A stretch of DNA of 64,000 nucleotides from an uncultured archaeon (GTDB lineage: Archaea > Asgardarchaeota > Lokiarchaeia > Sigyniarchaeales > SOKP01), in NCBI GenBank assembly GCA_964508365.1, contig CAZDTP010000008.1:35513-99512 (forward strand), read 5' to 3'. The position numbers and the translations under genes are program-made. Below the pieces are notes generated by a model, which was not told the DNA's origin, ran no database searches, and was given only the letters and a program-made list of their open reading frames with translations. Below, piece by piece: positions 13,538-26,982 of this stretch; position 1 is the stretch's first letter; each line of letters begins with the position of its first letter.

Positions 13538-13672
13538 GAGGTTTTTGTACATTTTATGTTATATTTGAACGATTATTAATAAATTTTAAATAAGTCGGAA
13601 AATAATAAGAATTATCTATTTTAATTGAATAGATATTCAAAAAAATAACACAAACATCTTGGTTTATTAAAA

Positions 13673-13906
13673 ATGGTTGACATAACTGAAACGTTGGATT
13701 GTACGGGCGAAGTGTGCCCATATCCAGATGTGAAAAGTAAAAGGAAAGTAAAAAAAATGAAATCAGGGGAGATTTTAAAGATTTTAGTCGATTATCCTCT
13801 CTCAGCTGAGAGGATTCCTGAAACGATGGAATCTCTTGGCCATGAAGTAATCTCGTCGGAAAAAACGGGAGCATCTGCATGGGAAATCCTGATTAAAATA
13901 AAATAG
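13673..13906 (+). CDS. tusA: TusA/SirA/YeeD-family sulfur carrier
   Basis: LDCTGEVCPYP (CPxP motif) and ILVD. Confidence 0.93.
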   Translation: MVDITETLDCTGEVCPYPDVKSKRKVKKMKSGEILKILVDYPLSAERIPETMESLGHEVISSEKTGASAWEILIKIK

Positions 13907-13916
13907 GTGAAACAAA

Positions 13917-14972
13917 ATGGCAATGGAATTTTTATATATGTTAGTAGTTGGACTTATAATTGGAGCCATATTTGGTTTTATATTGCAAAGTGGAAGATTC
14001 TGCATGAATTCTGCCTTTAGAGATATTATTCTCTTGAAGGAGTTTAAACTCGCAAAGGCCGTTGCAGTGTCTCTAGCAGTGCTAGCGGTTGGATTCTCTA
14101 TTTTTGCTTTCGCGGGAATAATAAACCTCTCTCCTAAACCTTTTGCGCCATGGGCAGCAATTGTTGGTGGCCTTATCTTTGGGATGGGGATGGTTTTTGC
14201 CGGCGGATGTGCGAGTGGAACAACTTATCGAGTCGGAGAAGGAATGATGGGATCATTTGTTGCTGCTGTTGGACTAACAGTTGGTGCCTTAATGACAGCT
14301 GGTGGAGTTTTAAGCGATGTTTCAATTTGGTTAAAAAGCTTCAATTATGGGCAAATAACTCTTGTTGGTGCATTTGACGCTTTTATTCTCCCAATCTTCA
14401 TGCTAATTCTCGGTATTGTTGGAATAGCTTTGATGTTATTCTTCTGGTCGTGGCCAGTAATAAAGAGAAAGATAGATGCTAAGGAACCTTTTATAAAGTT
14501 TGATAACTTTGTTGAAGTAAGCTTTAAAAAGGCATATCCATGGTGGGTAACTGGAATTTTAATTGGTCTTATTCTAACAGCTGGATATGTAGCTAGTGGT
14601 AGCGTTATTGGTATAACTGGAGGCTGGATGAACATTAGTGGCTGGTTAACTGCTGGTGAATTTTCAGCAACAAGTAGCTTAGCTTGGACTGGATTCATCA
14701 TCTTCGGCATTCTAATTGGAGCAATGGTGAGTGCAATTCTTAAGAAAGAGTTCAAATTTAGAGTTCCAAAAGATGGTTTTACATTGCTAAAACAATTCTT
14801 TGGTGGAATTTTAATGGGATTTGGCGCAGTAACCGCTATGGGTTGTAACATTACCAACATCTTAGGTGGAATACCACAGCTATCCTTACATAGCATCATA
14901 GTTGGTGTTTGCATAATGTTAGGTTCTTGGATAATGGCTTATCTTCTCTTCATGAGAGGAGACAAAGAATAA
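13917..14972 (+). CDS. yeeE: YeeE/YedE (TsuA)-family thiosulfate/sulfur-compound transporter
   Basis: Multi-TM protein with the three conserved Cys motifs RFCM, GGCASG and MGCNI. Confidence 0.92.
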   Translation: MAMEFLYMLVVGLIIGAIFGFILQSGRFCMNSAFRDIILLKEFKLAKAVAVSLAVLAVGFSIFAFAGIINLSPKPFAPWAAIVGGLIFGMGMVFAGGCASGTTYRVGEGMMGSFVAAVGLTVGALMTAGGVLSDVSIWLKSFNYGQITLVGAFDAFILPIFMLILGIVGIALMLFFWSWPVIKRKIDAKEPFIKFDNFVEVSFKKAYPWWVTGILIGLILTAGYVASGSVIGITGGWMNISGWLTAGEFSATSSLAWTGFIIFGILIGAMVSAILKKEFKFRVPKDGFTLLKQFFGGILMGFGAVTAMGCNITNILGGIPQLSLHSIIVGVCIMLGSWIMAYLLFMRGDKE

Positions 14973-14991
14973 ATTGAGTTGATATCAAAAA

Positions 14992-15354
14992 ATGCCTCGA
15001 TTAGGAATTCTTTTCTTTGATGGCCCATACCAAACGCAAGCCGCTGAAACTGTGGTCAAGCTTTCTAGCGCAGCTTTAGACAAAGGACACGAAGTTCGTA
15101 TCTTTTGTTATATGGATGCCGTAAATGCACTCTTAGAGAATCAGAAAAAGATTGAAGGGATTTTCAATATTGAAGAGGGTTTCAGAGAAATACTAGATAA
15201 AGGAGCCACTATTAGATTGTGTAATCTATGTCTCTTAGTTAGGGGTACCATGAAAAACTGTCTAGAGAAAGAATGCGGCGATATAAAACGAGCAGGGACT
15301 CCCGATCTAGCTAAAATAATAGAAGAAACTGATAAACTTATAGTAATTTGTTAA
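14992..15354 (+). CDS. dsrE: DsrE/TusD-like sulfurtransferase
   Basis: GPYQTQAA, FCYMDAV and LCNLCLLVRG (persulfide-forming Cys position). Confidence 0.85.
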   Translation: MPRLGILFFDGPYQTQAAETVVKLSSAALDKGHEVRIFCYMDAVNALLENQKKIEGIFNIEEGFREILDKGATIRLCNLCLLVRGTMKNCLEKECGDIKRAGTPDLAKIIEETDKLIVIC

Positions 15355-15365
15355 GGTGATAAAAA

Positions 15366-15710
15366 ATGGCAGAAGAAAAAAATGTGGTTATACTTTTACG
15401 GCAACCTCCTCATGGAACTTTGTATCCTGTTGAAGGATTAAGAATGACGGTTGCTGTTAGTGCTGATTTCGATCCTATTACAATAGCAATTAACGACGCA
15501 GTTTACACCTTTACAAAAGACGTTGACAAAACCATGTACGCTATGCACATTGAATTTATTAAAAATATTGATTTAGATATATTTGTTGATAAAAAATCTC
15601 TTGACGAGCGTGGCTTAAAAAAAGAGGATCTAATAGATCAAATTGAAGTTAAAGAACATGGAGAAATATTAAAAATGATTGCGGATTCAACCGTAACCAT
15701 TCCGTTCTAG
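15366..15710 (+). CDS. dsrF: DsrF/TusC-like protein
   Basis: LRQPPHGT..PVEGLRM, DAVY and SLDERGL motifs; gene order E-F-H. Confidence 0.82.
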   Translation: MAEEKNVVILLRQPPHGTLYPVEGLRMTVAVSADFDPITIAINDAVYTFTKDVDKTMYAMHIEFIKNIDLDIFVDKKSLDERGLKKEDLIDQIEVKEHGEILKMIADSTVTIPF

Positions 15711-15722
15711 GAGGAGATAAAA

Positions 15723-16022
15723 ATGGGCAAAAAAGTGTTGTATTTTATAACAAGTGAAGATATTACAGGAGTAGAACTTGCAATGGAGCACACAGACGAC
15801 GATGACGTCACGATTCTTTTACTTCAAAACGCGGTCTATTTTGCAAATAAATCTAATAAAGCGATTTCACAAGCGCTTAATCAAAACAAAAAGGTTACTG
15901 CTTGTAAAGAACACGTAGATACTCGGGGAATAAATAAGTTTATTTCTGATAAGATCAGACTGGTTGCTTCTGATGAGGTAATTGACTTAATTTTTGAGAA
16001 CGATACCATTATAAATATGTAA
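15723..16022 (+). CDS. dsrH: DsrH/TusB-like protein
   Basis: LLLQNAVY and HVDTRG motifs; third gene of the triad. Confidence 0.8.
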   Translation: MGKKVLYFITSEDITGVELAMEHTDDDDVTILLLQNAVYFANKSNKAISQALNQNKKVTACKEHVDTRGINKFISDKIRLVASDEVIDLIFENDTIINM

Positions 16023-16157: not shown

Positions 16158-16970
16158 GTGATTTATGTGGTATTTAATCCGTTTGATAGTAGTTTAGCTT
16201 TTGTTTGGGATTTAATTGCGACAGTCATATCTATTGTTATATTGTTAGCTTTGGTACAAATCAATGCTTTAATGCAAAAAAAGGGAAAAGTTTCACAAAT
16301 TATTACAAGAAAATTCGTGCATATATTTGCGGGTCCCATATTCGTAGTTACATGGATGCTCTTTTCAGGTGAAATTATTAGTCACTATATAGCTGTAATA
16401 GTTCCACTGTTATTCGTGTTACAGTTCGTAGCTATTGGTACTGGTCTTATGAAGAACGAGAGTTTTGTGGCATCAATGTCGAGATCGGGAGACCCTAAAG
16501 AACTTCTTCAAGGAACGCTCTATTATGCAATTGTTATGGTGTTAATGACTTTTTTCTGGTTTTACGTACCTTCTACCGGCATAAATAATGCAAATCCTAC
16601 CGCACTACTTATTATTGGGTGTGTTTCGGGTGGAGATGGGTTAGCGGATATAATAGGTCGTAAATTTGGTGGAGAAAAAAAGTTTGGAATTAAAGGAAGC
16701 GAAAAGACCATTATAGGGAGTATAGGTATGCTGGTTGGATCAATATTAGTTAGCTCTATTCTCGTCTTGATCTTTTCTCTAGAAGTTCCGCATTTTAATA
16801 TCATTACACTCATTTTACCGATAATTGTTGTTAGTATAGTTGCCACTATAGTAGAAGCGTTATCACCTAAGGGTACTGATAACTTCACAATTTTTCTTGC
16901 GGTCATAATCGTTATCTTGATATTTGAGTTAGGATTTCCAGACTTTTGGCCTTATTCTTTTAGTTTCTAA
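16158..16970 (+). CDS. CTP-dependent polyprenol kinase (phytol/dolichol/DGK1-like, cytidylyltransferase family)
   Basis: Multi-TM protein with RKFVHI, GDGLADIIGRKFG, KTIIGS and DNFTI motifs. Confidence 0.85.
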   Translation: MIYVVFNPFDSSLAFVWDLIATVISIVILLALVQINALMQKKGKVSQIITRKFVHIFAGPIFVVTWMLFSGEIISHYIAVIVPLLFVLQFVAIGTGLMKNESFVASMSRSGDPKELLQGTLYYAIVMVLMTFFWFYVPSTGINNANPTALLIIGCVSGGDGLADIIGRKFGGEKKFGIKGSEKTIIGSIGMLVGSILVSSILVLIFSLEVPHFNIITLILPIIVVSIVATIVEALSPKGTDNFTIFLAVIIVILIFELGFPDFWPYSFSF

Positions 16971-16990
16971 TACAATATTTAGGAGTATAA

Positions 16991-17812
16991 ATGACGGCAG
17001 AAGAAGTATTAGTTATAAAGCTTGGCGGTTCATTGCTTACGGACAAATCAACGGAATACAAATTAAGAGAAGATGTTATAAAAGCAGTTGCTGCGGAAAT
17101 AAAAGAATGTATTGATTTAGGTCTAATCAAAAGTCTTGTAATTATCCACGGAGTAGGTTCTTTCGGCCATCCCCCCGTGTTAAAATACAATCTTCATAAA
17201 GGCTTTAGAAATAAGGATCAATTAATTTCAATGTCAAAAACGCAGCAAATCGTGAATGAGTTTCGAAACACGATTGCCACTACATTTCTGGAGGAAGGGG
17301 TTCCTATTAACTTGATGCACGCCTCTTCGATGGTTGTGGGTAATAAGATGGTGATAGCTGATCTTGCATTTAATTCTTTAAAAGGCTTTTTATCTTTGGG
17401 GATGGTCCCATTGATAGGAGGCGACATGATGTACGATACCAATATGGGTTTTAGCGTTTGTAGCGGAGATCAATTAGCTGTAGTTCTTTCACGCGTATTA
17501 CACGCTAAACAACTATTATTTGCAACAGATGTGCCTGGTGTGTTCGATAAAGACCCAAAATCGGGAGAGCATGCACAACTGCTTAGAGAAATAAATATCA
17601 ATAAGATTGAAAAAGTATTAAGCAAAACGAACGAAACAAGTAAAACCGATGCGTCTGGTAAAATGCAAGGTAAATTGCTTTCACTGGTTTCGATTAAGGA
17701 TCGAATACAAGAGGGTCTTGAAGTAATTATTCTCTCAATGAACAAGAAGGGTGTTCTCAAGAATTATCTTAAAGGAGAAGAAAGTGAACTGACAAAAATA
17801 ATTTGTAATTAA
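16991..17812 (+). CDS. ipk: Isopentenyl phosphate kinase (amino-acid-kinase fold)
   Basis: IKLGGSLLTDK, IHGVGSFGH (IPK signature), SGD and DASGKMQGK. Confidence 0.9.
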   Translation: MTAEEVLVIKLGGSLLTDKSTEYKLREDVIKAVAAEIKECIDLGLIKSLVIIHGVGSFGHPPVLKYNLHKGFRNKDQLISMSKTQQIVNEFRNTIATTFLEEGVPINLMHASSMVVGNKMVIADLAFNSLKGFLSLGMVPLIGGDMMYDTNMGFSVCSGDQLAVVLSRVLHAKQLLFATDVPGVFDKDPKSGEHAQLLREININKIEKVLSKTNETSKTDASGKMQGKLLSLVSIKDRIQEGLEVIILSMNKKGVLKNYLKGEESELTKIICN

Positions 17813-17853: not shown

Positions 17854-18189
17854 TTATTTACCTAAATTTTCTTTTTTTTTCATTTTTTTATATAAGTGCC
17901 GAAATCCCATAATCGGATGCGAGTATATCATCCGAGGTCCAGCATATCGCATTACTGTTCTTATCTTTTCCCTCATGTCATGTTTATAACAATGAATTGG
18001 ACATGTATTGCATGTAGGTTTTTCTTCGCCGAATCGACAATTTTTTAATCGTTCCTCAGCGTAGTGAAAAAGATCTGAGCATTGTTGACATAAATCATCT
18101 TCACAGTCATGAAAATGTCTACAGTACATCCGAATCATAGTGTTAATTGTGTTGTGTTCTTGTTCTAAAGGACTTTTAGAAGGAGACAT
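17854..18189 (-). CDS. YgbA / nitrous-oxide-stimulated-promoter family protein
   Basis: E..TI..MIRMYC..H, C..L..YA..RL..C.FGEEKP.C..CPIHCY and YAGPRM..HP. Confidence 0.88.
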   Translation of the reverse strand: MSPSKSPLEQEHNTINTMIRMYCRHFHDCEDDLCQQCSDLFHYAEERLKNCRFGEEKPTCNTCPIHCYKHDMREKIRTVMRYAGPRMIYSHPIMGFRHLYKKMKKKENLGK

Positions 18190-18388: not shown

Positions 18389-19615
18389 GTGAGAAAACAG
18401 ATTTCACAGAACTCTTTAGATGAAATAGAAGGGAAAAAACAAAAAAATTTGACAATTGGAAGAAAACACATTTTCTTAGTGCTTACATTGTCATTTATGG
18501 TCAATTTCGACAGCAACGCAGCAATTCCGATAATTGCTACCTACGCGGGAAAATTAGGAGCCTCGATAATATTCGCAGGATTTATTGTAGGAATTTACTC
18601 CATGGTCCATATTCCTTCAAACATAATTTTTGGAAGGTTAGTTGACAAAATCGGCAGAAAAAGCTTAATATCTTTAGGAGTATTTTTAGATGGGTTATCA
18701 CTGCTTATATATGCGTTAGCTCAAGATCCTATTTTCCTATTATTTGGAAGAATAATTCACGGAATAGGAGGTGGTTTTGGAGGACCTGCTACAATGGCTT
18801 ATATCGCTGATGCTACATCCCAAAGGCGTAGCGGAAGGGGGATGGCACTATATGGAATGTCCATCGGATTTTCAAATTTGATAGGATTCTTGTTAGGTGG
18901 CCTAGTTGCTCAAATAATTGGAGAAAGCAATTTGTTTTTCATAATTGCAATTGTTTTATTCGTCATGTCATTTACATCACTATTTCTTCCTTCGATTTAT
19001 CAACCATCCAAAGAGAAATTCAACCTCCGCAAGGAAATCAAACAATTTAGAGAAGTAGTCTTTAGAAAATCTATGATAAGTCCTTACTTTTCGATTCTAG
19101 CAATGATGTTTAACATGGGAATTGTTACAGCAGCATATACGGTAATGTTAGAGTCTGCAACATATACAGTTGGTCAAACAGGGATGATTCTTAGCATTAT
19201 GGTTATCTTTTCGATACTAATTCATTATCCCGCCGGAATTTTAAGCGATAAAATAGGCTACATTAAGGTAATGCTAATTGGATTATTTCTGATTGCGTTT
19301 TCATTTGGAGTTTTTATAATATCTTTAGAAGCCCCATTTCCTATGATCGGAATGGCTCTTCTCGGCGTAGGCCATGGATTGATATTTCCCTCCTCAGCTG
19401 GAATGATTAAAGAGAAAACTAAAGATTCTGAAAGTGGAGTAGCGACAGGAACATTCTACGCCTTGATTGTAGCAGGTGTGGCTATTGGAGCGCCGGTCTC
19501 TGGTTTTGTATACGAAATTTATAACGCCCAATTTACTTTGGCATTAGGAATCATCATTCCTTTAATCATGGCTATCGTTCTCGCAGTTCTTTTAAAATAT
19601 CTTAAAAAGGATTAA
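18389..19615 (+). CDS. Major facilitator superfamily transporter
   Basis: 12 TM segments, with motif A (GRLVDKIGRK) repeated (GILSDKIGY). Confidence 0.92.
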   Translation: MRKQISQNSLDEIEGKKQKNLTIGRKHIFLVLTLSFMVNFDSNAAIPIIATYAGKLGASIIFAGFIVGIYSMVHIPSNIIFGRLVDKIGRKSLISLGVFLDGLSLLIYALAQDPIFLLFGRIIHGIGGGFGGPATMAYIADATSQRRSGRGMALYGMSIGFSNLIGFLLGGLVAQIIGESNLFFIIAIVLFVMSFTSLFLPSIYQPSKEKFNLRKEIKQFREVVFRKSMISPYFSILAMMFNMGIVTAAYTVMLESATYTVGQTGMILSIMVIFSILIHYPAGILSDKIGYIKVMLIGLFLIAFSFGVFIISLEAPFPMIGMALLGVGHGLIFPSSAGMIKEKTKDSESGVATGTFYALIVAGVAIGAPVSGFVYEIYNAQFTLALGIIIPLIMAIVLAVLLKYLKKD

Positions 19616-19632: not shown

Positions 19633-20084
19633 ATGTTGCTTGACTTTTTAAAAAACAAAAAGCATTATCACTTATTTTGGCGATAGCATTTATAGTGCTA
19701 TTCGTAGCGGGTATAGTGCTTGTATCTATCGAAGATTATTCGTTATTACTATCTCCTTTAGTGTCAACAGTAGCTAGCCCTAGTGCTTCTGCAACCGTCA
19801 TGGTTGCCCACATTCCAAGTAGCCTCTCGATTATATTACTTCCATTGTATACAATATTCAAAATTAAAAAAACCAATTGGAAAGCTTTATTAATGTCAAT
19901 TGGAGGTCTGGTTGTTAGTCTTGCTGGTGTACTTCTGGCATTTTTTACTCTTAATCCTATTGACATCCCATTATTGATTTTGATATTAACTGTTCTGCCA
20001 ATTATGTTAGTTATTACGGCTGTATTTTTTGTATTTGGAATGCTACTTCCAGAAATATGGAGTTTCGCAATCCCTGGCTTATAA
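19633..20084 (+). pseudogene. Frameshifted or truncated membrane-protein gene
   Basis: MLLDFLKNKKHYHLFW (from ATG 19633) continues naturally into AIAFIVLFVAG... only through a -1 shift near 19650-19680. There is no room for its own promoter after the MFS stop. Confidence 0.45.
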
Positions 20085-20184: not shown

Positions 20185-20760
20185 TTGAAAATTAACCAAA
20201 TTATTATGTCAAGAAAAAATATTTTTTATATTTTGTGCATCTTTTTGATTATCGGTTTGAATTTGAGCGCTTTTAGTGTGAAAGCGCATAGTCCTATAAC
20301 TATGGATATGGAATACGATCTAGATGCACAAGAACTTAGTATTAAAATTACGCACGGAGTTACGGACCCTACTTATCACTATGTATACTTAATGGAAGTT
20401 TGGGTTAATAGTAGTGATCCTTATCATCCTCCCGAAGCTCCTGATTATTCGTTCCACTTCACTGAACAACCAGCTCACAACATAAATAATTATATCCTAA
20501 GTTTTCCAGCCGGAGATAAGGCTAATATTACTGTAACAGCCTATTGTTCCCTCGGTGGAAGTTTAACAGAACATTTTTACATTGGACAACCCTACTATAA
20601 CCCACATGGAACCTTCTCTTTAGCAGTAATTCCTACAATTGTCTCGACGATCATAGTATTTGGGTTGCTTTTTATCTTACCTATGTTAGGACAAAAAAAC
20701 GCACCAAAAATAGAAGGTAAGAATAGGTATCAAGTAAATGATAAACAAAAGATATTTTAA
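20185..20760 (+). CDS. Exported, C-terminally anchored protein with a desulfoferrodoxin/SOR-like His-His-His-Cys pattern
   Basis: Signal peptide ending VKA|H, then H35, H57, H65 (HY) and C121 (AYCSLGG), plus a C-terminal TM. The start may be ATG 20206. Confidence 0.7.
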   Translation: MKINQIIMSRKNIFYILCIFLIIGLNLSAFSVKAHSPITMDMEYDLDAQELSIKITHGVTDPTYHYVYLMEVWVNSSDPYHPPEAPDYSFHFTEQPAHNINNYILSFPAGDKANITVTAYCSLGGSLTEHFYIGQPYYNPHGTFSLAVIPTIVSTIIVFGLLFILPMLGQKNAPKIEGKNRYQVNDKQKIF

Positions 20761-20805
20761 TCAATAGGGTTTTTAAAAAATATTTATTAATCTATAAAAC
20801 AAACA

Positions 20806-22296
20806 ATGGTGTTAAAAATAGAAACAGAAACAATCCCAATCGAATCAGGTCTAGAAACCTCAATGGAAACGCAGGAGATGAAAGTTGAACCAGAAACGAG
20901 TTTCAAGAAGATACATTATGTCATGTTTTTATTCGTATTTGTTCAAGTACTTTGGTATCTGACTTTTTCCGAACCTTTGACTGTCCTAATTGGGGGAGAG
21001 CCGATCTTTCCTTTCTTCCTTAGCGACGACATAATATCAAGGACAGCTCGAATTGTCATGATATATCACTCGTTAGCTTTACCCTTTTTAATTGCGAACA
21101 CATTCTGGGTATTAGAACACTATGAAATCCGTCAGAAGTGGTTGCCAACTCTAAAGATCCTGTTAATACCTAGTGCGTTTCTTGTAGGTATAAATGGAAT
21201 GATTTTTGCGTATACACGTCTTAGACTTTTCCACGAACTTTTCACTTTTGGTATGCTACTTTGTTTCATTGGTGGAATTGTATTTGTTATAGCAGCGTGG
21301 CCAGTAAAGGGTAGATTTCCAAAAGTTAACCCTAGAGGTTCCACATTCAGAGGGATTAATTTGGAATATTTTAATCTCGTAATTTTAGCGATATGCATAA
21401 TGGTTTCGGCAATATATGGCGCTCTTGCAGCTATTGAAAACTTTACGAATAGTATTTGGGGTCTAAACCGCGAACCTATAGCATTTTTAGCAGAAGCAAT
21501 CATTAGACACGGGATAACTTTCGGACACGAACACGATATCGTCCAAGACATGATAGTTGGTCACCTTCACATACAGCTTGCTCAATCAGCAGCTATGGTT
21601 ATGCTGGTTGCCTTCCGTACGAGTAAATTGTCAGGTAAGCTTTATACTTATTTGTTATTGTTTACTCCGATTGGCGTTATAACATTATCTTATGGTGCTT
21701 GGGTTCTAAACCATTACGTAATATGGGTGGGCGCTGGGCTATTGATACTAGTAACTATAATTATGTCAATAGTTGGCATGAAGACCACTATTAAGGAACA
21801 TTTAGGAGACGATTACAGATCAGCATCACATTCAGAAAGGCTTAAAGCTTTGTTTAGGGAACCTGTAAAATTGACATATTATTACCTTCTTTTTATTGCA
21901 GAACTTATAGTTTTCCCTCAAATCTATGTTGGGCTTGTTACTGATGATATTTATAGATTACATTCATATGTACAACTGGAGTATAATTTTAACGTTGCAC
22001 ATTGGCACCAATTGGCAGTGATGATCGCTGTGGCTTTGATGATACATGCTATCGACTTTTTCAAAGTTGAAGGTCGATTAAAAAAATTATTGGGTTGGAT
22101 TTTTTTTATCGGAGTTAATTTAACATTTCCTTTCGCAATGGCACATATGGTACGTCCAGTAGAATGGGAAAGTGTTGAGATCTTTCTGACTATTACATTT
22201 CTGGGAGTATGGTTTCTCTTGGCAGGCTTTGTACTCGGATTATACGCGCTAGGTAAAAATCTAAAACCTAACCCATTAACTTCTAAACTAACGTAA
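20806..22296 (+). CDS. Divergent heme-copper oxidase superfamily subunit-I-like protein (12 TM)
   Basis: H88 (TM2), GH253LH255IQ (TM6), NH303, VAH399WH401 (TM10) and FIGVNLTF (TM11). The His spacing parallels Cox1. Confidence 0.72.
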   Translation: MVLKIETETIPIESGLETSMETQEMKVEPETSFKKIHYVMFLFVFVQVLWYLTFSEPLTVLIGGEPIFPFFLSDDIISRTARIVMIYHSLALPFLIANTFWVLEHYEIRQKWLPTLKILLIPSAFLVGINGMIFAYTRLRLFHELFTFGMLLCFIGGIVFVIAAWPVKGRFPKVNPRGSTFRGINLEYFNLVILAICIMVSAIYGALAAIENFTNSIWGLNREPIAFLAEAIIRHGITFGHEHDIVQDMIVGHLHIQLAQSAAMVMLVAFRTSKLSGKLYTYLLLFTPIGVITLSYGAWVLNHYVIWVGAGLLILVTIIMSIVGMKTTIKEHLGDDYRSASHSERLKALFREPVKLTYYYLLFIAELIVFPQIYVGLVTDDIYRLHSYVQLEYNFNVAHWHQLAVMIAVALMIHAIDFFKVEGRLKKLLGWIFFIGVNLTFPFAMAHMVRPVEWESVEIFLTITFLGVWFLLAGFVLGLYALGKNLKPNPLTSKLT

Positions 22297-22312
22297 TAAT
22301 AATTAATTAACT

Positions 22313-23206
22313 ATGAGGATGGTCTTGGACTTAAAAAATATGTTATCTCTCTTTGGAGAGTTAATAAAAGCTAAACAAACCATACTTTTGCTTTATACTG
22401 GAGTTTTATCTTATTTAATTACCGCCTTCAGTTTAGTAATTGAAATAAACTGGCTCAATTTACTATCTCTGGTAATCTCATTATACCTCACAGTCTCAGG
22501 TACTACCGTACTGAATATGTATATAGATAGAGATATTGACGCAATCATGGAGCGCACAAAAGATCGCCCGTTACCAAGTGGTAAAGTTACAACATCTACT
22601 GTTCTTACAATTGGAACCGTGTTAACTGTTACAGGTATCGTTCTTGCATTTCTAACTCTCAATTGGTTAACTGCATTAATTATTTTTTTAGGCTTTTTCT
22701 TTGATATCGTAATTTATAGTATTCTATTGAAAAGAAGAACTAAGTATAGCATAATCTTTGGAGGGATTGCTGGTGGTCTTCCGGCATGGGCTGGTAGGAC
22801 CGCTATAATGGGAAGTTTAGACTGGATTGGATTCTTATTTCTTATCTTCATTCTAGCTTGGATTCCCGTCCATATTCTTACAATAGCTTTAATACCCAAA
22901 AATTATAAAGGATATAAAGATGCGGGAATCCCTATGTGGCCAATTGTAAGTTCAAGAACACAAACAATGCGAGTTATAACCATAGGGGCATTGATTAGTA
23001 GTTTAGCGCTCTACGAGGCTGCTAGGATTTTAGGGGCAAATGCGATTATAAGAATCATCTGGGGGGTCTGTTGTCTAATAATTTTAGTTTTAGTAATAAA
23101 AAACTTAATAAAACCTTCAAATAAGCTCACTTTCCTCATTTTTAAGATTGCGTCTCTTTACATGATCCTAGGATTTTTATTACTCTTATTCGTAGTTATC
23201 CTATAA
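22313..23206 (+). CDS. cyoE: Protoheme IX farnesyltransferase (heme O synthase, UbiA family)
   Basis: LIKAKQT.LL, NMYIDRDIDAIMERTKDRPLPSG, YSILLKRRT, GGIAGGLP.WAG, WIPVHI and YKDAGIPMWP. Confidence 0.93.
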   Translation: MRMVLDLKNMLSLFGELIKAKQTILLLYTGVLSYLITAFSLVIEINWLNLLSLVISLYLTVSGTTVLNMYIDRDIDAIMERTKDRPLPSGKVTTSTVLTIGTVLTVTGIVLAFLTLNWLTALIIFLGFFFDIVIYSILLKRRTKYSIIFGGIAGGLPAWAGRTAIMGSLDWIGFLFLIFILAWIPVHILTIALIPKNYKGYKDAGIPMWPIVSSRTQTMRVITIGALISSLALYEAARILGANAIIRIIWGVCCLIILVLVIKNLIKPSNKLTFLIFKIASLYMILGFLLLLFVVIL

Positions 23207-23291
23207 TAAGAACCAAAATTTAGCAAAATAAATGATTAAATAAAATATTAAAAATTTAACAAAAAATAAATTAAAAAAAAAGGTAAGATAT

Positions 23292-23873
23292 ATGGAACCT
23301 GAGATACAAATATTACTATCTTTTATAGCTGTTGCGATCTTTGTAGCACTGATTTTAACATTGAATTTTAGAAAAAAAGGGACACTAAAAGTTCTGATTT
23401 GGATTTGGATTATCTTATTCGGAATTTTGATGACTGTAATAGTCGTATTGAACGGTATTGAAATCCTTGCGCCTAGACCAACAGCGTTGATGATTGATGA
23501 ATATGATGTTTTTACTAGTTGGCATATCGGTGTAATCCTAGGTCTACCGGCATTAATTTCGCTATCAATTGGAACTATTCTCGTTTTATACAACGAGCAA
23601 AAATACGTATTATGGCATGGATATACGGCAGGAGGAGCTCTAATTGTTACGATTATAAATATTATTTTATTAATATTCTTAACTCCAACAGAAATACTTA
23701 ATTATTCCGGAATGATCCACGCACTCCATATAATGCTTGGAGCAATAGGTTTAATGACGGGTAGTGCAAGCTTTTTATTTGGTGCTTCTGGACAGCGAAA
23801 TCTCGCTAGAATGACAGGATATTTTACATTAGCAGGATGGTGGGGAGCCTTTCTATTGGGGCTTTTTCTTTAA
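23292..23873 (+). CDS. His-containing membrane protein, DUF420(CtaM)/cytochrome-b561-like
   Basis: About 6 TM with in-membrane His residues: SWHIG, LWHGY and IHALHIMLG. Confidence 0.6.
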   Translation: MEPEIQILLSFIAVAIFVALILTLNFRKKGTLKVLIWIWIILFGILMTVIVVLNGIEILAPRPTALMIDEYDVFTSWHIGVILGLPALISLSIGTILVLYNEQKYVLWHGYTAGGALIVTIINIILLIFLTPTEILNYSGMIHALHIMLGAIGLMTGSASFLFGASGQRNLARMTGYFTLAGWWGAFLLGLFL

Positions 23874-23896
23874 TAGAAAATGAGGTAAAAAAGATA

Positions 23897-25363
23897 ATGA
23901 ATGAAGTAAAAGTTGAAGAAAAACAAGAAAATGGAAAGACTAAATTTACATACGAAATAGAAGAATTCATATCATCTCCACATGTAAGTACAGATAGGTA
24001 CGAAATTGAAGCAACTTCCGGTGATCTTTCATTGTTATCTAAGTATCACTATAAGTTTAAAGAAGAATATCAGGCTACTCATGTAGTTCGTCCTGGTAAC
24101 ACCGAAGAACTTTCTAAATTAATGCAAAAATGCTATGAATATTCAATGCCTGTAACCCTACGAGCCGCAGGAACTTCGTGTTATTCAGCTTCTACACCTA
24201 CTAAAGGTGGTGTTATAATTGATGTGCGACGAATGAACAAGGTACACAAAATTGACAAGGAAAACATGACTGTCAAATGCGATGCGGGAATTGCGTGGCA
24301 AAAACTCATTGAAGAACTTCTCGACTACGGATTAGCTCCAAAATGTTATCCTACTAGCTATAGGGCTAGTTGTGTTAGCGGATTTGTCGCTACTTCTGGT
24401 AAAGTAGGAATTGGTGTCTTGAAAAATGGAATATTGAAGGATGCATTACAATCTGTTGTTTTTGTGAAACCAGATGGCTCTACAGAGACAATATCTAGAG
24501 ATTCTCAAGGAGATTTATCGCTTGATGACATCATAGGCTCTTTTGGTATATTTGGCGCTGTTGCTGAAGTAGAATTAGAAGTAACTACTCTTACAACTTC
24601 AATAGAAATGATAGGATACAGTTTTAATACATCTAAAATGGCGATTGAGTTTTTTCGAACTTTGAAAAATAGCAAGGCAAATAAACCGCTTTTCCTTTCG
24701 CTTTCGGATAAACATTTTGAGAAGTATGCTCACTGGACTTATCCATCCCGAGATTATTTTGTCTTTGCGGTATATTCTGACGATCCTAATGTGACCTCTC
24801 AGAATGTTTCGTTTGCTAAAGAAACTGCTTCAAAGTTAGATGGACTTAGTGTTGAGGAATGGTATCTAAAGGAAAAATGGCGCGACATAACTGAAACTGA
24901 ATTAAATCTAGGACGATGGTGTCAAAATCTAATTTTTCAAGAATATTGGGTTTCAGATGAGAGAGTTGAAGATTTTTATAACTTTTACATGGAAAAGACT
25001 TCTAAGCAACGGTATCGACACGCATTTTACTTGATGTCTGGAGCTAAAGGAGGGAACAGAGTCAAACTTTTCGGTCTTTCTGATATTAAGAACTCTCGAG
25101 AATTTTTCGGAATTAAAGCAGTTTTTAACGATATTACAATAAACAACTACGAACATAAAGACAGTTTATACTCGTTAGGGGTTGTAAATACATTCTACTT
25201 TCTTAGGTTTAACCCTGAAAAAGCAGCGTACTTACGAAATTTGAAAAACAAATTAGACCCAAAAGATCTCGTTAATTCTTATAGATTAGTGAAAGCAAAA
25301 ATGAGACCTTGGCGCGTTGGACTCCTTTTTTGGATAGCAAAACGACTCTACAGAACAGCCTAA
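23897..25363 (+). CDS. FAD-binding (PCMH-type) oxidoreductase, GlcD/D-2-hydroxyacid dehydrogenase-like
   Basis: VVRPGNTEEL, RAAGTS, GGVIIDVRRMNKV and C-terminal LDPKDLVN. The probable start is ATG 23897 after GAGGT; the track start at 23837 overlaps the upstream gene. Confidence 0.88.
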   Translation: MNEVKVEEKQENGKTKFTYEIEEFISSPHVSTDRYEIEATSGDLSLLSKYHYKFKEEYQATHVVRPGNTEELSKLMQKCYEYSMPVTLRAAGTSCYSASTPTKGGVIIDVRRMNKVHKIDKENMTVKCDAGIAWQKLIEELLDYGLAPKCYPTSYRASCVSGFVATSGKVGIGVLKNGILKDALQSVVFVKPDGSTETISRDSQGDLSLDDIIGSFGIFGAVAEVELEVTTLTTSIEMIGYSFNTSKMAIEFFRTLKNSKANKPLFLSLSDKHFEKYAHWTYPSRDYFVFAVYSDDPNVTSQNVSFAKETASKLDGLSVEEWYLKEKWRDITETELNLGRWCQNLIFQEYWVSDERVEDFYNFYMEKTSKQRYRHAFYLMSGAKGGNRVKLFGLSDIKNSREFFGIKAVFNDITINNYEHKDSLYSLGVVNTFYFLRFNPEKAAYLRNLKNKLDPKDLVNSYRLVKAKMRPWRVGLLFWIAKRLYRTA

Positions 25364-25397
25364 AATGAACTAAAATTAAAAAGAGGTAAAACTAAAA

Positions 25398-26756
25398 ATG
25401 AGTGATGAAAAAGTAAGTGAAGATGTAAAAAAACTAGTAACGACTGGTCCTACCGTTTCTTCCATGTTTGCACCAGACAAAGAGAACTTAGTTGAACCTG
25501 GATCTCACAAAGACAACGATTTTGAGCGATGTATACAATGCGGTTATTGCCGCAATGTTTGTAGGGTGTATAGTATAACCTTTTCCGAAAGGGATTATGC
25601 CGGGGGACGAAATAGAATCCTCAAAGCTTTGTCTAAAAAGGAGCTTGATTTCAATAAAGAAGAGATCATTCCTTCAATCTTTCAGTGTATGCTTTGTGGC
25701 CATTGCAGGACCGTTTGCCCCGTAGGAATCGATTTGTTAGAAGTTTTTCAAAATTACAGAAGAACTGCCGTGCGTAAAGGGGTTCTACCTGAAAAACTAG
25801 GAATCTTAAAAAACTCTATACTAACAAACAAAAATCCATTTCTCGAAAGTGGAACTGATAGATATAATTGGTGTGATTCGGAAACTTGTAAAGAAGGGTA
25901 CGATGCATTACAACGTGGAATAGAACGTACTAGAAAAATTGAATCTGGGGAATTAAAACCGAGCGATATTGATGAACATTTAGTAGGTTATTTCGTTGGT
26001 TGTACTAGTTCGTATCGAAATAACGAGTTAAGTACAGCAACAGCTCGAATTTTAGAGAAACTAGGCGTGAAGTTCATTTTGTTTCCCGATGAATATTGTT
26101 GTGGGTCGGTCATGTTCCGAACTGGGTTAGAAGACGATGCTATTCAATTAGTTAAATATAACGTTGATATGATTCGAAAGTTAGGAGTTAACGAACTCGT
26201 CTTTTCTTGCGCTGGCTGTTTTTCTACATTTAATAATGAATATCCTAAGTTTGTGGGGGGCCTTGACTTCGAGCTTTCTCACTTGGTTCAATTTGTACCT
26301 AAAATCGTAAAACAAAAGGGACTTAGAATAAGATACACGAAGCGAACAAAAGAAGACCCAATGATTATTACGTATCACGATCCATGCCACTTAGGACGAT
26401 ATTGTGGTGTGTACGACGAACCAAGAGAGCTAATGAACATGATTGAAGGCGTTAAGTTTATAGAGATGAAACATAACAGAGAAATGTCTTTATGCTGTGG
26501 TGCGGGTGGAGGAGTAAGAGCTTTATATGGAGAAATTTCGCTTGATATTGCTAGTAATCGGTTAGATGAAACTGTAGCGTGTTGGGAGAACATTAACGAA
26601 GACCGTTTAAAGGAAGCAATCGAATCAAAGGCAGAGGTATTAGTTAGCGCTTGTGTCTTTTGTAAAAATAATCTACATCTCGCAGCTAGTCAGACAAAAC
26701 CTGATTTACCAATGATAGATTTATCTCAAATCCTTTCTGAATGCGAATTTTATTAA
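25398..26756 (+). CDS. Fe-S oxidoreductase, GlcF/HdrD-like (2x[4Fe-4S] plus two CCG domains)
   Basis: CIQCGYCRNVC, CMLCGHCRTVCP, YCCGS...SCAGC and YHDPCHLGR...LCCGAGGG...SACVFC. Confidence 0.92.
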   Translation: MSDEKVSEDVKKLVTTGPTVSSMFAPDKENLVEPGSHKDNDFERCIQCGYCRNVCRVYSITFSERDYAGGRNRILKALSKKELDFNKEEIIPSIFQCMLCGHCRTVCPVGIDLLEVFQNYRRTAVRKGVLPEKLGILKNSILTNKNPFLESGTDRYNWCDSETCKEGYDALQRGIERTRKIESGELKPSDIDEHLVGYFVGCTSSYRNNELSTATARILEKLGVKFILFPDEYCCGSVMFRTGLEDDAIQLVKYNVDMIRKLGVNELVFSCAGCFSTFNNEYPKFVGGLDFELSHLVQFVPKIVKQKGLRIRYTKRTKEDPMIITYHDPCHLGRYCGVYDEPRELMNMIEGVKFIEMKHNREMSLCCGAGGGVRALYGEISLDIASNRLDETVACWENINEDRLKEAIESKAEVLVSACVFCKNNLHLAASQTKPDLPMIDLSQILSECEFY

Positions 26757-26758
26757 TA

Positions 26759-26790
26759 TTTTTTTATACTAATTTAAATTTTTATTTTCT
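26759..26790 (+). terminator. T-rich terminator candidate closing the 20.2-26.8 kb gene run
   Basis: T7 immediately after the stop, followed by further T-rich tracts. Confidence 0.4.
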
Positions 26791-26982
26791 AAATTTTATT
26801 TCATTCTAAAGTATTCTTATAAATTTTCTTCATGCTTTGACATATCTAAATTAGAAGCTAAATTAGACAAGGTCTTAATAAACTAGGTTTTTAATACGAA
26901 AAGATAATAAATTTACAGTATTTATTTCTAATAAGTGTTTAAATAAAATTTAATTACGATTAAATTTACGGTATGAAAAATT

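Follow-up and report, generated by a model that had tools for sequence, protein, structure and literature searches.

A stretch of 64,000 nucleotides from the contig CAZDTP010000008.1 of an uncultured archaeon of the Lokiarchaeia (hereinafter the window) contains a run of six genes at positions 20185-26756, all on the forward strand in our reading of its open reading frames (ORFs; genes 1-6 in Table 1). Our analysis of these genes leads to a reading that we regard as evenly poised, namely that they form an operon whose products make up a non-canonical redox complex in the membrane, which depends on haem O and is built on the fold of subunit I of the haem-copper oxidases (HCOs). The system is probably an undescribed reducer of oxygen, nitric oxide (NO) or reactive oxygen species. 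The evidence for this reading includes the large membrane protein encoded by gene 2, the prenyltransferase encoded by gene 3 and the pattern of their co-occurrence across archaeal and bacterial genomes.

Searches with the gene 2 product against Pfam, NCBIfam and PDB sequence profiles recovered no match, and the Pfam COX1 profile (PF00115) matched neither this protein at an e-value of 0.01 nor ten of its distant relatives at an e-value of 1. We collected 109 close homologs, of which the named ones are all from Asgard metagenome-assembled genomes (MAGs; Lokiarchaeia, Thorarchaeia, Hodarchaeales, Promethearchaeota and Harpocratesius), all described as 'hypothetical' and none with a Pfam domain. 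An AlphaFold2 model computed from 26 sequences (pLDDT 78, pTM 0.81) predicts 12 transmembrane (TM) helices, and an exhaustive VIA-align structure search with this model returned HCO subunit I chains as all of the top ten matches (Z = 21.5-13.9). The best of these was CcoN of the cbb3 oxidase (PDB: 3mk7_A; Z = 21.5, root-mean-square deviation 3.8, 391 residues aligned), followed by NorB (PDB: 4xyd_A; Z = 19.9) and then by CyoB, the ba3 and caa3 oxidases and qNOR, with the next unrelated fold appearing at Z = 10.7. Likewise, among the 46 Foldseek matches listed for the model all but four are HCO subunit I chains, headed by COX1, CyoB, CcoN and qNOR (e-value ~2e-3, TM-score ~0.5). The predicted model has the 12-TM core fold of HCO subunit I, and the initial annotation of this protein as HCO-like is borne out at the level of the fold, as well as by the invariance of its haem-ligand histidines.

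In all oxidases and NO reductases two haems are held by three histidines, one of them on TM2 and the other two forming an H-x-H motif on TM10. An alignment of 23 sequences of the gene 2 family, including bacterial relatives and extending down to 18% identity, revealed four invariant histidines: H88 on helix 2, H253 on helix 6, and H399 and H401 on helix 10 (as part of a GHWH motif). H255, H303 and E392 are conserved in at least 90% of these sequences. The TM2 histidine and the TM10 H-x-H of the HCOs thus have counterparts in H88, H399 and H401, an assignment based on the helices concerned, the spacing of the residues and the alignment of motifs; in a global hhalign comparison the NVGHWH motif of the gene 2 family falls on VVGHFH of Asgard COX1 (P = 0.0035). 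Further, H303 is situated at the border of TM7 and TM8, 50 residues from H253, and across the family the distance from the TM6 histidine to the next histidine is 50-65 residues, as against 49 residues to the His-His pair in Asgard COX1. Judged by this spacing, which resembles that of the CuB ligands, H253 and H303 are candidate ligands for a non-haem metal. As an aside, an atlas cluster from Methanobacteriota (433 residues), in which 13% of the members have a COX1 match, resembles the gene 2 model (TM-scores 0.62/0.70) and may be another divergent lineage with the oxidase fold.

Gene 3 codes for a full-length UbiA-type prenyltransferase (PF01040, e-value 2.3e-44, profile positions 15-247 of 250). 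Its best NCBIfam match is the cyoE_ctaB model TIGR01473 with 196.7 bits (positions 3-278 of 281), while other UbiA families reach at most 47 bits, in agreement with its initial annotation as a haem O synthase. This score misses the equivalog cut-off of the model (210.3 bits); module-linked homologs of gene 3 score 174-225 bits and COX1-linked ones up to 272. We also considered the DGGGP synthase of archaeal lipid synthesis as an identity for gene 3 and rejected it, given that the genome codes for six UbiA paralogs, of which gene 3 is the sole cyoE-like one, alongside five others. In a phylogenetic tree of cyoE the module-linked genes (those of the full and minimal Asgard forms and the bacterial form, as described below) lie apart from the COX1-linked cyoE of Asgard archaea with support of 90/98, and the bacterial clade has support of 100/98, in a tree that excludes canonical bacterial cyoE and whose root rests on very long outgroup branches. 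Gene 3 belongs to a cyoE clade that is dedicated to the module. As a separate observation, the genomes G285-G289 of one Asgard family (f24) and the genome G396 have a cyoE that scores over the curated cut-off, and have neither canonical COX1 nor the oxidase-fold family; their cyoE stands as an orphan, a haem O synthase without an evident client protein.

To examine the genomic linkage of these two genes we surveyed 399 Asgard genomes, and found the gene 2 family in 60, a cyoE-like gene in 72, and canonical COX1 in 24, the last in four taxonomic families only. As many as 58 of the 60 gene 2 holders have a cyoE-like gene, usually adjacent, and the remaining two are represented by a fragment only (G016) and a partial copy (G073). 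The gene 2 family is found without canonical COX1 in 45 genomes, 43 of which have a cyoE-like gene; within the window's genus 12 of 41 genomes have the gene 2 family and the same 12 hold cyoE. No COX1, CtaA or cytochrome bd was found in the window's own genome, which is rated 100% complete. Among the observations that the initial annotation had named as speaking against it were homologs of the 496-residue protein occurring mostly without cyoE and a lack of synteny elsewhere. The above figures go the other way on the former; as for the latter, the module is syntenic in contigs from Lokiarchaeia and Thorarchaeia and in ones labelled Hodarchaeales, and this recurrence of the same genes indicates that their order is not due to chance. 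The module genes occur together in 6 of 20 Asgard genome regions that we fetched.

Comparison of 23 fetched loci showed that the module comes in more than one form: 1) the full form with genes 1-6, found within the family and the order to which the window belongs, as well as in a Thorarchaeia MAG, with the gene order partly shuffled; 2) a version in a MAG labelled Hodarchaeales with genes 2-6, and a 268-residue membrane protein in the place of gene 1; 3) a minimal form with only gene 2 and cyoE, seen in four other Asgard families. In one Lokiarchaeia MAG cyoE follows gene 6. Hence, of the six-gene system originally proposed, the pair of gene 2 and cyoE holds up as universal, and genes 1, 4, 5 and 6 turn out to be an add-on of one Asgard clade. 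Beyond these forms, the single-contig 4.32-Mb genome of a member of the Lokiarchaeia order (G142:C1) carries two copies (L113, 633-653 kb; L114, 2716-2736 kb), one with genes 1-2-4-5-6 and without cyoE, the other consisting of gene 2 and cyoE with a regulator of the HTH_10 type; a single cyoE may thus serve the two copies. In another genome of the window's genus (L127, G247:C18) a second, very divergent copy of gene 2 (25% identity) with a gene 1 homolog, at 13603-15771, is placed between the MFS gene and the main module.

Relatives of gene 2 are also found in bacteria, at 573 or more loci in species genomes. A pattern scan of these genomes used a narrower gene 2 alignment (A7), and we examined the best 80 loci, which are mostly from Chloroflexota of the class Anaerolineae, and also from Ignavibacteriota, Calditrichota, Aminicenantes, Neomarinimicrobiota and others. 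In 79 of these 80 loci a match to the FGE-sulfatase domain lies downstream on the same strand (within ~520 nucleotides in 74), in 75 a cyoE-like gene follows on the same strand ~1 kb downstream, and in 33 there is a Crp/Fnr regulator at most 3 kb upstream. No homologs of genes 1, 4, 5 or 6 were found in the 80 loci. In some gene 2 relatives the FGE domain or beta-propellers form part of the same protein as a fusion.

Gene 1 of the window, the presumed extracytoplasmic component, had no match in Pfam and NCBIfam scans, and comparison of its family with PDB sequences yielded chance matches only. We recovered 99 homologs, and all 13 of those with a source name are from Asgard archaea. The protein begins with a signal sequence and ends in a TM helix, between which there is a domain rich in beta structure, with lineage-specific insertions of up to ~100 residues in the family, whose alignment displays five invariant residues: H28, P30, H50, H58 and C114 (in the numbering of the 184-residue form). 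The metal-site exoprotein of the initial annotation is thus upheld, in that the protein is exported and has an invariant site of three histidines and a cysteine. When the family was compared by hhalign with 18 canonical superoxide reductases (SORs) of Lokiarchaeia the match was non-significant (P = 0.07). The same alignment placed AHSP on KHVP, HYI..IEVW on HYI.WIEL and YCSLGG on YCN.HG, so that the histidines and cysteine of gene 1 align with three of the four histidine ligands and the cysteine ligand of the SOR iron site; of the complete SOR set of four histidines and a cysteine, the histidine of the C-x-x-H motif is replaced by glycine in gene 1. The SOR profile (PF01880) does not match gene 1 and matches one of 17 family members, with an e-value of 0.058, and a weak Atlas lead (0.76) also points to SOR. 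On account of this ligand pattern gene 1 is probably SOR-like. A search of the whole genome with PF01880 recovered only a canonical SOR, which is encoded on another contig.

We further predicted the structure of a complex of gene 2, two haems and gene 1, which gave an ipSAE of 0.70, as against 0.00 for the best of three controls, with a pLDDT of at least 72 for the partner and at least 58% of the contacts shared by three runs. The ipSAE mark that we used is reached by 58 of 80 solved complexes and by 2 of 110 mismatched pairs, a benchmark that holds roughly here, given that custom alignments were used and haem was included in the prediction. According to the model, gene 1 packs its TM helix against residues 285-309 of gene 2, and its histidine-bearing face rests on gene 2 loops at the outer side, among them residues 380-393 just ahead of the TM10 haem ligands. 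In oxidases this position is taken by subunit II. Going by the modeled complex, gene 1 is a predicted partner of gene 2, analogous to the oxidase subunit II.

The remaining genes of the module code for a histidine-rich membrane protein (gene 4) and a pair of redox proteins (genes 5 and 6). The Pfam scan of gene 4 found no match, and its named homologs are all from Asgard archaea; the family alignment has invariant H78, H109, H143 and H146 and an SGQR motif. Its model (pLDDT 79) has two TM helices and a four-helix bundle, and its structural matches are generic helical bundles (Z at most 12), among many of which CyoC/COX3 (subunit III) appears with a Foldseek e-value of 0.26 or more and VIA-align Z of 10.5-11.3. 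The DUF420 (CtaM, PF04238) identity given to this protein by the initial annotation was rejected as unsupported, with one of 14 members matching the profile at an e-value of 3.6; an Atlas lead to DUF420 (0.81), a domain found on 19% of the cluster members, is weak. A relationship to oxidase subunit I was likewise rejected, hhalign comparisons with COX1 and the gene 2 family showing none (e-values 0.19-0.26), and they do not back the label 'Cytochrome oxidase subunit I profile' that one gene 4 homolog bears in UniRef. We consider gene 4 an auxiliary subunit and a candidate haem- or metal-binding link to the dehydrogenase formed by genes 5 and 6.

In the case of the latter two genes the original description, as an FAD dehydrogenase and an Fe-S/CCG protein, is confirmed by an FAD_binding_4 domain in gene 5 (e-value 2.8e-29), and by two [4Fe-4S] motifs (Fer4_8, e-value 1.5e-13) and two CCG stretches (e-value 9.4e-34) in gene 6. 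Gene 5 scores 80 bits with the GlcD model, against a cut-off of 568, and its solved relatives, LctD (e-value 2e-16) and alkyl-DHAP synthase, match it in the FAD domain only; its C-terminal half had no family match in Pfam or NCBIfam. The nearest NCBIfam models for gene 6 are TfrB, LdhH and GlpC, all under their cut-offs, with GlcF at 88 bits against a cut-off of 333, and its best solved relative is residues 409-700 of the mycobacterial EtfD, i.e. its soluble part (e-value 4.7e-35).

Taken together, these observations suggest a mechanism in which gene 3 would supply haem O by farnesylating haem B that has been scavenged, and gene 2 would be the recipient of this haem O and the catalytic reductase. 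The extracytoplasmic partner varies, being the SOR-like gene 1 in the window and an FGE-domain protein in bacteria, and there is none in the minimal Asgard form. Catalysis is accordingly placed in gene 2, and the outer partners are cast as electron-transfer or accessory proteins, because only gene 2 and cyoE are universal. Gene 1 would occupy a place like that of subunit II, above the TM9-10 loop on the outside of gene 2, and would exchange electrons via its 3His+Cys metal site. In the cytoplasm genes 5 and 6, whose tight synteny with the others makes them the proposed electron donor, would oxidize a 2-hydroxy acid such as D-lactate or glycolate and feed electrons into the complex, perhaps by way of the histidine-rich gene 4 or some other carrier in the membrane. 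The oxidant would be O2, NO or an O2-derived species, removed for protection and not for growth; with gene 2 lacking the His-His pair and the cross-link tyrosine of the oxidases (see below), NO, O2 reduced by another route, and superoxide or peroxide are left as candidates. More tentatively, and with rather less than even confidence, we propose that the gene 2 family is a deep branch of the HCOs, which uses haem O at a rewired site to reduce O2, NO or superoxide in strict anaerobes hitherto regarded as 'oxidase-free'. Its hosts would be Lokiarchaeia, Thorarchaeia, Hodarchaeales and hundreds of bacteria of the Anaerolineae type, and the Asgard enzyme would be wired to an outward SOR-like iron subunit and a cytoplasmic 2-hydroxyacid dehydrogenase, with its haem being scavenged.

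Several points weigh against the reading of the module as a haem O-dependent reductase. The canonical CuB His-His pair is missing in gene 2, with position 304 never being a histidine in the 23-sequence alignment, as is the cross-link tyrosine, with none at H253+4 and none conserved on TM7; the canonical mechanism of O2 reduction is therefore unlikely. Gene 2 carries an extra histidine, H255, on TM6 two residues past H253, and a second haem with two histidine ligands might take the place of an 'active site'. Moreover, the homology of gene 2 and COX1 rests on the predicted fold and motifs because no sequence method links them. As gene 3 scores just under the cut-off and falls in a sister clade, its substrate or prenyl donor could differ from those of haem O synthase. 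In the HCO fold both haems lie near the outer face, and the path to them from the cytoplasmic Fe-S protein is a proposed one; and as the bacterial and minimal Asgard forms lack genes 1, 4, 5 and 6, the dehydrogenase link is clade-specific.

The supply of cofactors is a further difficulty of the same kind. HemB, HemC and MqnA were not found in the window's genome, despite its completeness rating, and haem and any quinone would have to come from outside or from unknown pathways; with MqnA not found no quinone route is evident. The self-contained chain that the initial annotation had put forward, as an inference only, is not supported by this gene complement. HemB is rare throughout the survey (20 of 399 genomes, and 7 of the 60 module holders). 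A full-length haem catalase is encoded in the window's genome (G000:C59:16038-17183, 659 bits), and its presence without HemB and HemC implies haem uptake. In the Asgard family f16 canonical COX1 is found in 9 of 22 genomes and HemB in one of 22, and thus oxidase-bearing Asgard lineages too appear to be haem auxotrophs. Haem B has been measured in cultures of a Hodarchaeales strain (bioRxiv 10.1101/2025.02.26.640444). The scarcity of HemB, the pattern in f16, the catalase and this measured haem B make it likely that haem scavenging is the rule in the phylum. The missing haem pathway weakens the haem O reading without overturning it, and we infer from the module that haem O is used in haem auxotrophs.

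The peculiarities of gene 2 can also be accommodated by a different division of labor, which we hold to be unlikely but well worth weighing. Here gene 2 would be an electron conduit with two six-coordinate haems, its one-time active site being closed by H253 or H255, and the chemistry would occur at the outer partner, making the module an outward-facing reductase of superoxide or other reactive oxygen species, or an electron outlet, with an FGE-type metal domain as its bacterial counterpart. This would account for the missing His-His pair and tyrosine and the extra H255, and it draws support from the alignment of the three histidines and cysteine of gene 1 with the SOR iron ligands, the weak Atlas and Pfam leads to SOR, the predicted placement of the metal-site face of gene 1 on the TM9-10 loop, and the FGE-domain partner of the bacterial loci, which is sometimes fused to the gene 2 relative. 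However, the outer partner is not conserved and has no equivalent in the minimal Asgard form, while gene 2 and cyoE are universal, and a dedicated supply of haem O is harder to explain for plain electron-transfer haems. The SOR likeness is itself non-significant, with glycine for the fifth-ligand histidine, and a cytoplasmic SOR is already present in 34 of 40 relatives, including the window's genome. A reading without any haem, in which the substrate of gene 3 would be a different one and gene 2 would be a His-rich membrane protein that only looks like the oxidase fold (e.g. involved in transport or metal handling), would be in keeping with the missing HemB and HemC, the score of gene 3 under the equivalog cut-off and the lack of a sequence-level link to COX1. 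We consider it very unlikely, as the invariant residues of gene 2 are the exact haem-ligand set of the HCOs on the corresponding helices, other proteins with 12 TM helices or a helical fold score 9-11 Z units lower in the structure search, gene 3 is ~150 bits nearer to cyoE than to other UbiA families, and the genome keeps a haem catalase.

Two other alternatives concern the place of genes 5 and 6. That these constitute an ordinary D-lactate or glycolate dehydrogenase, independent of a haem O oxidase-like unit of genes 1-4 by its side, appears quite unlikely to us. GlcD-like and HdrD/GlpC-like pairs are indeed common as stand-alone dehydrogenases, the nearest solved proteins are LctD and EtfD, and the pair is missing from the bacterial and minimal Asgard forms; but genes 4, 5 and 6 stay with gene 2 in all nine loci of type A (eight plus the window), despite the shuffled order, the second copy in the G142 genome keeps genes 1, 2, 4, 5 and 6 together without cyoE, and the genes of the window are separated by short gaps with Shine-Dalgarno-like motifs ahead of genes 4, 5 and 6. 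The same pair could conceivably modify the cofactor, acting as an equivalent of haem A synthase for anaerobic conditions that oxidizes a haem O side group independently of O2, and the absence of CtaA from the genome, the membership of gene 5 in the VAO/PCMH superfamily with weak matches to p-cresol methylhydroxylase, and its C-terminal substrate domain without a family match would fit with this. The superfamily is known to include enzymes that hydroxylate methyl groups with water. Nevertheless, gene 5 is nearer to the lactate and glycolate dehydrogenases (e-value 2e-16) than to PCMH (1.4e-4), the bacterial and minimal Asgard forms work without genes 5 and 6, and we know of no precedent for a modification of haem O by proteins of this type, which leaves this reading barely plausible.

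Table 1. Features of the module and its upstream flank (positions in the window)
Feature	Position	Strand	Description
Gene 1	20185-20760; probable true start ATG 20206	+	Exported 3His+Cys protein; N-terminal signal sequence, C-terminal TM anchor
Gene 2	20806-22296	+	496-residue, 12-TM protein with the predicted fold of haem-copper oxidase/NO reductase subunit I
Gene 3	22313-23206	+	Haem O synthase-like UbiA prenyltransferase
Gene 4	23292-23873	+	193-residue, 6-TM histidine-rich membrane protein (2 TM + 4-helix bundle)
Gene 5	23897-25363; ORF open from 23837	+	FAD-linked oxidase/dehydrogenase (VAO/PCMH superfamily), closest to LctD/GlcD
Gene 6	25398-26756	+	Two [4Fe-4S] motifs and two CCG domains; HdrD/GlpC/EtfD-like
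T-rich tract (T7, T5)	26757-26815	+	Possible archaeal oligo-T terminator
YgbA_NO-family gene	17854-18189	-	PF11756, e-value 6.3e-42; divergent from the MFS gene
MFS transporter	18389-19615	+	MFS_1, e-value 1.3e-53; conserved upstream neighbor
135-residue hydrophobic ORF	19677-20084	+	Between the MFS gene and gene 1; no Pfam match

At the level of the nucleotide sequence, the arrangement of six co-oriented genes with gaps of 45, 16, 85, 23 and 34 nucleotides, as initially described, is reproduced exactly by the ORF coordinates with refined starts. The ORF of gene 1 is open from a TTG at 20185, and its nearest database homolog, of 184 residues, begins at the position of the ATG. The ATG chosen for gene 5 gives an N-terminus that matches the Thorarchaeia and Hodarchaeales homologs and has GAGGT upstream; such Shine-Dalgarno-like motifs (GAGGT or AAGGT) precede genes 4, 5 and 6. 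The T-rich end noted earlier is also there, as a run of seven Ts directly after the stop codon of gene 6, but it is weak evidence for a terminator because T runs are common at the ~33% G+C of this DNA (runs of six or more occur ~1.7 times per kb on the forward strand of the window). The G+C content is the same throughout the window, and the module does not show a compositional break.

Upstream of the module lie genes for a YgbA_NO-family protein, which is probably context outside the operon, and an MFS transporter, whose NCBIfam matches are to generic efflux-type models, all under cut-offs, and which is syntenic with the module in four loci. The ygbA gene and the divergent MFS gene are found as a pair upstream of the module in the window, in two related Lokiarchaeia genomes (G202 and G247) and on a Thorarchaeia contig, and this conserved pairing hints at NO-linked regulation or transport. 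In addition, catalase, Fur and HpaB adjoin one homologous module in Lokiarchaeia; together with ygbA, of a family stimulated by NO, and the Crp/Fnr regulator of many bacterial loci, these recurring neighbors connected with redox stress speak for the reductase reading. The small hydrophobic ORF that follows aligns with the C-terminal half of the 268-residue membrane protein labelled Hodarchaeales (35% identity, e-value 1.8e-8), which there directly precedes the oxidase-fold gene, and weaker relatives adjoin gene 2 in several other Asgard loci; the ORF may be a seventh subunit of the module or a remnant. Elsewhere, an HTH_10-type regulator and a conserved protein of ~265 residues accompany the module in two genomes of the Lokiarchaeia order and one MAG labelled Hodarchaeales (L001 14056-14796, L003 11520-12170, L114 8489-9115), and neither was found in the window. 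Genes for a 270-residue protein and an amino-acid kinase flank the module both in the window (16158-17812) and in a distant Lokiarchaeia MAG (L001 14802-16470), with 53% identity between the two, on opposite sides of the module.

Literature searches found no paper describing the gene 2 family and no publication on the three-gene operon of the Anaerolineae type. The family is invisible to annotation because it has no Pfam or NCBIfam model. A central question for models of eukaryogenesis is whether the archaea related to eukaryotes could cope with O2 or NO. In current surveys nothing but canonical COX1 and cytochrome bd is counted, and Lokiarchaeia and Thorarchaeia are recorded as having no oxidase. 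If the module indeed reduces O2, NO or reactive oxygen species, maps of aerotolerance in Asgard archaea and Anaerolineae would need revision, and a branch with another kind of metal site would have to be added to the oxidase superfamily tree. For biochemical work the module is a concrete target that can be cloned.

Comparison with known systems brings out how the module combines familiar elements. With the HCO subunit I proteins (CcoN, 3mk7; NorB, 4xyd) gene 2 shares the predicted 12-TM fold over 378-391 aligned residues, the TM2 histidine, the TM10 H-x-H, and the TM6 histidine with a second histidine ~50 residues further on, along with a gene order in which an extracytoplasmic partner comes first and the large subunit after it. 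The genetic tie to a haem O synthase is a likeness to the A- and B-type oxidases; cbb3 and cNOR use haem B, not haem O. Unlike the HCOs, gene 2 has an H-x-H on TM6 and lacks the TM7 His-His pair and a conserved cross-link tyrosine, and its partner is an SOR-like or FGE-domain protein and not a CuA cupredoxin or cytochrome c. The SOR-like partner, gene 1, recalls SOR/desulfoferrodoxin (PF01880) in the order, spacing and local motifs of three histidines and the cysteine, but differs in being exported and anchored by a C-terminal TM helix, in having glycine for the C-x-x-H histidine, and in the want of a significant profile match.

Gene 3 resembles CyoE/CtaB/Cox10 in its UbiA fold, in scoring ~150 bits better with this family than with others and in adjoining its presumed client, whereas it stands apart in belonging to a separate clade shared with the Anaerolineae-type operons, and in a host with no CtaA partner and no de novo haem synthesis. 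Genes 5 and 6 are akin to the dehydrogenases of the GlcDEF, LctD, Dld-II and HdrD-like type and to EtfD, HdrD and GlpC, by virtue of the FAD_binding_4 domain and the two [4Fe-4S] motifs and two CCG domains; they widely miss every equivalog cut-off and are embedded in an oxidase-like operon, and gene 6, unlike EtfD, is without a fused cytochrome b domain. The module also has a relative in the Anaerolineae-type operon of oxidase-fold, FGE-domain and cyoE-like genes. While that operon has an FGE-domain partner where the module has genes 1, 4, 5 and 6, and often a Crp/Fnr regulator encoded upstream, the two share a homologous large subunit, at 24% identity and with the same invariant histidines, and their cyoE genes form sister clades.

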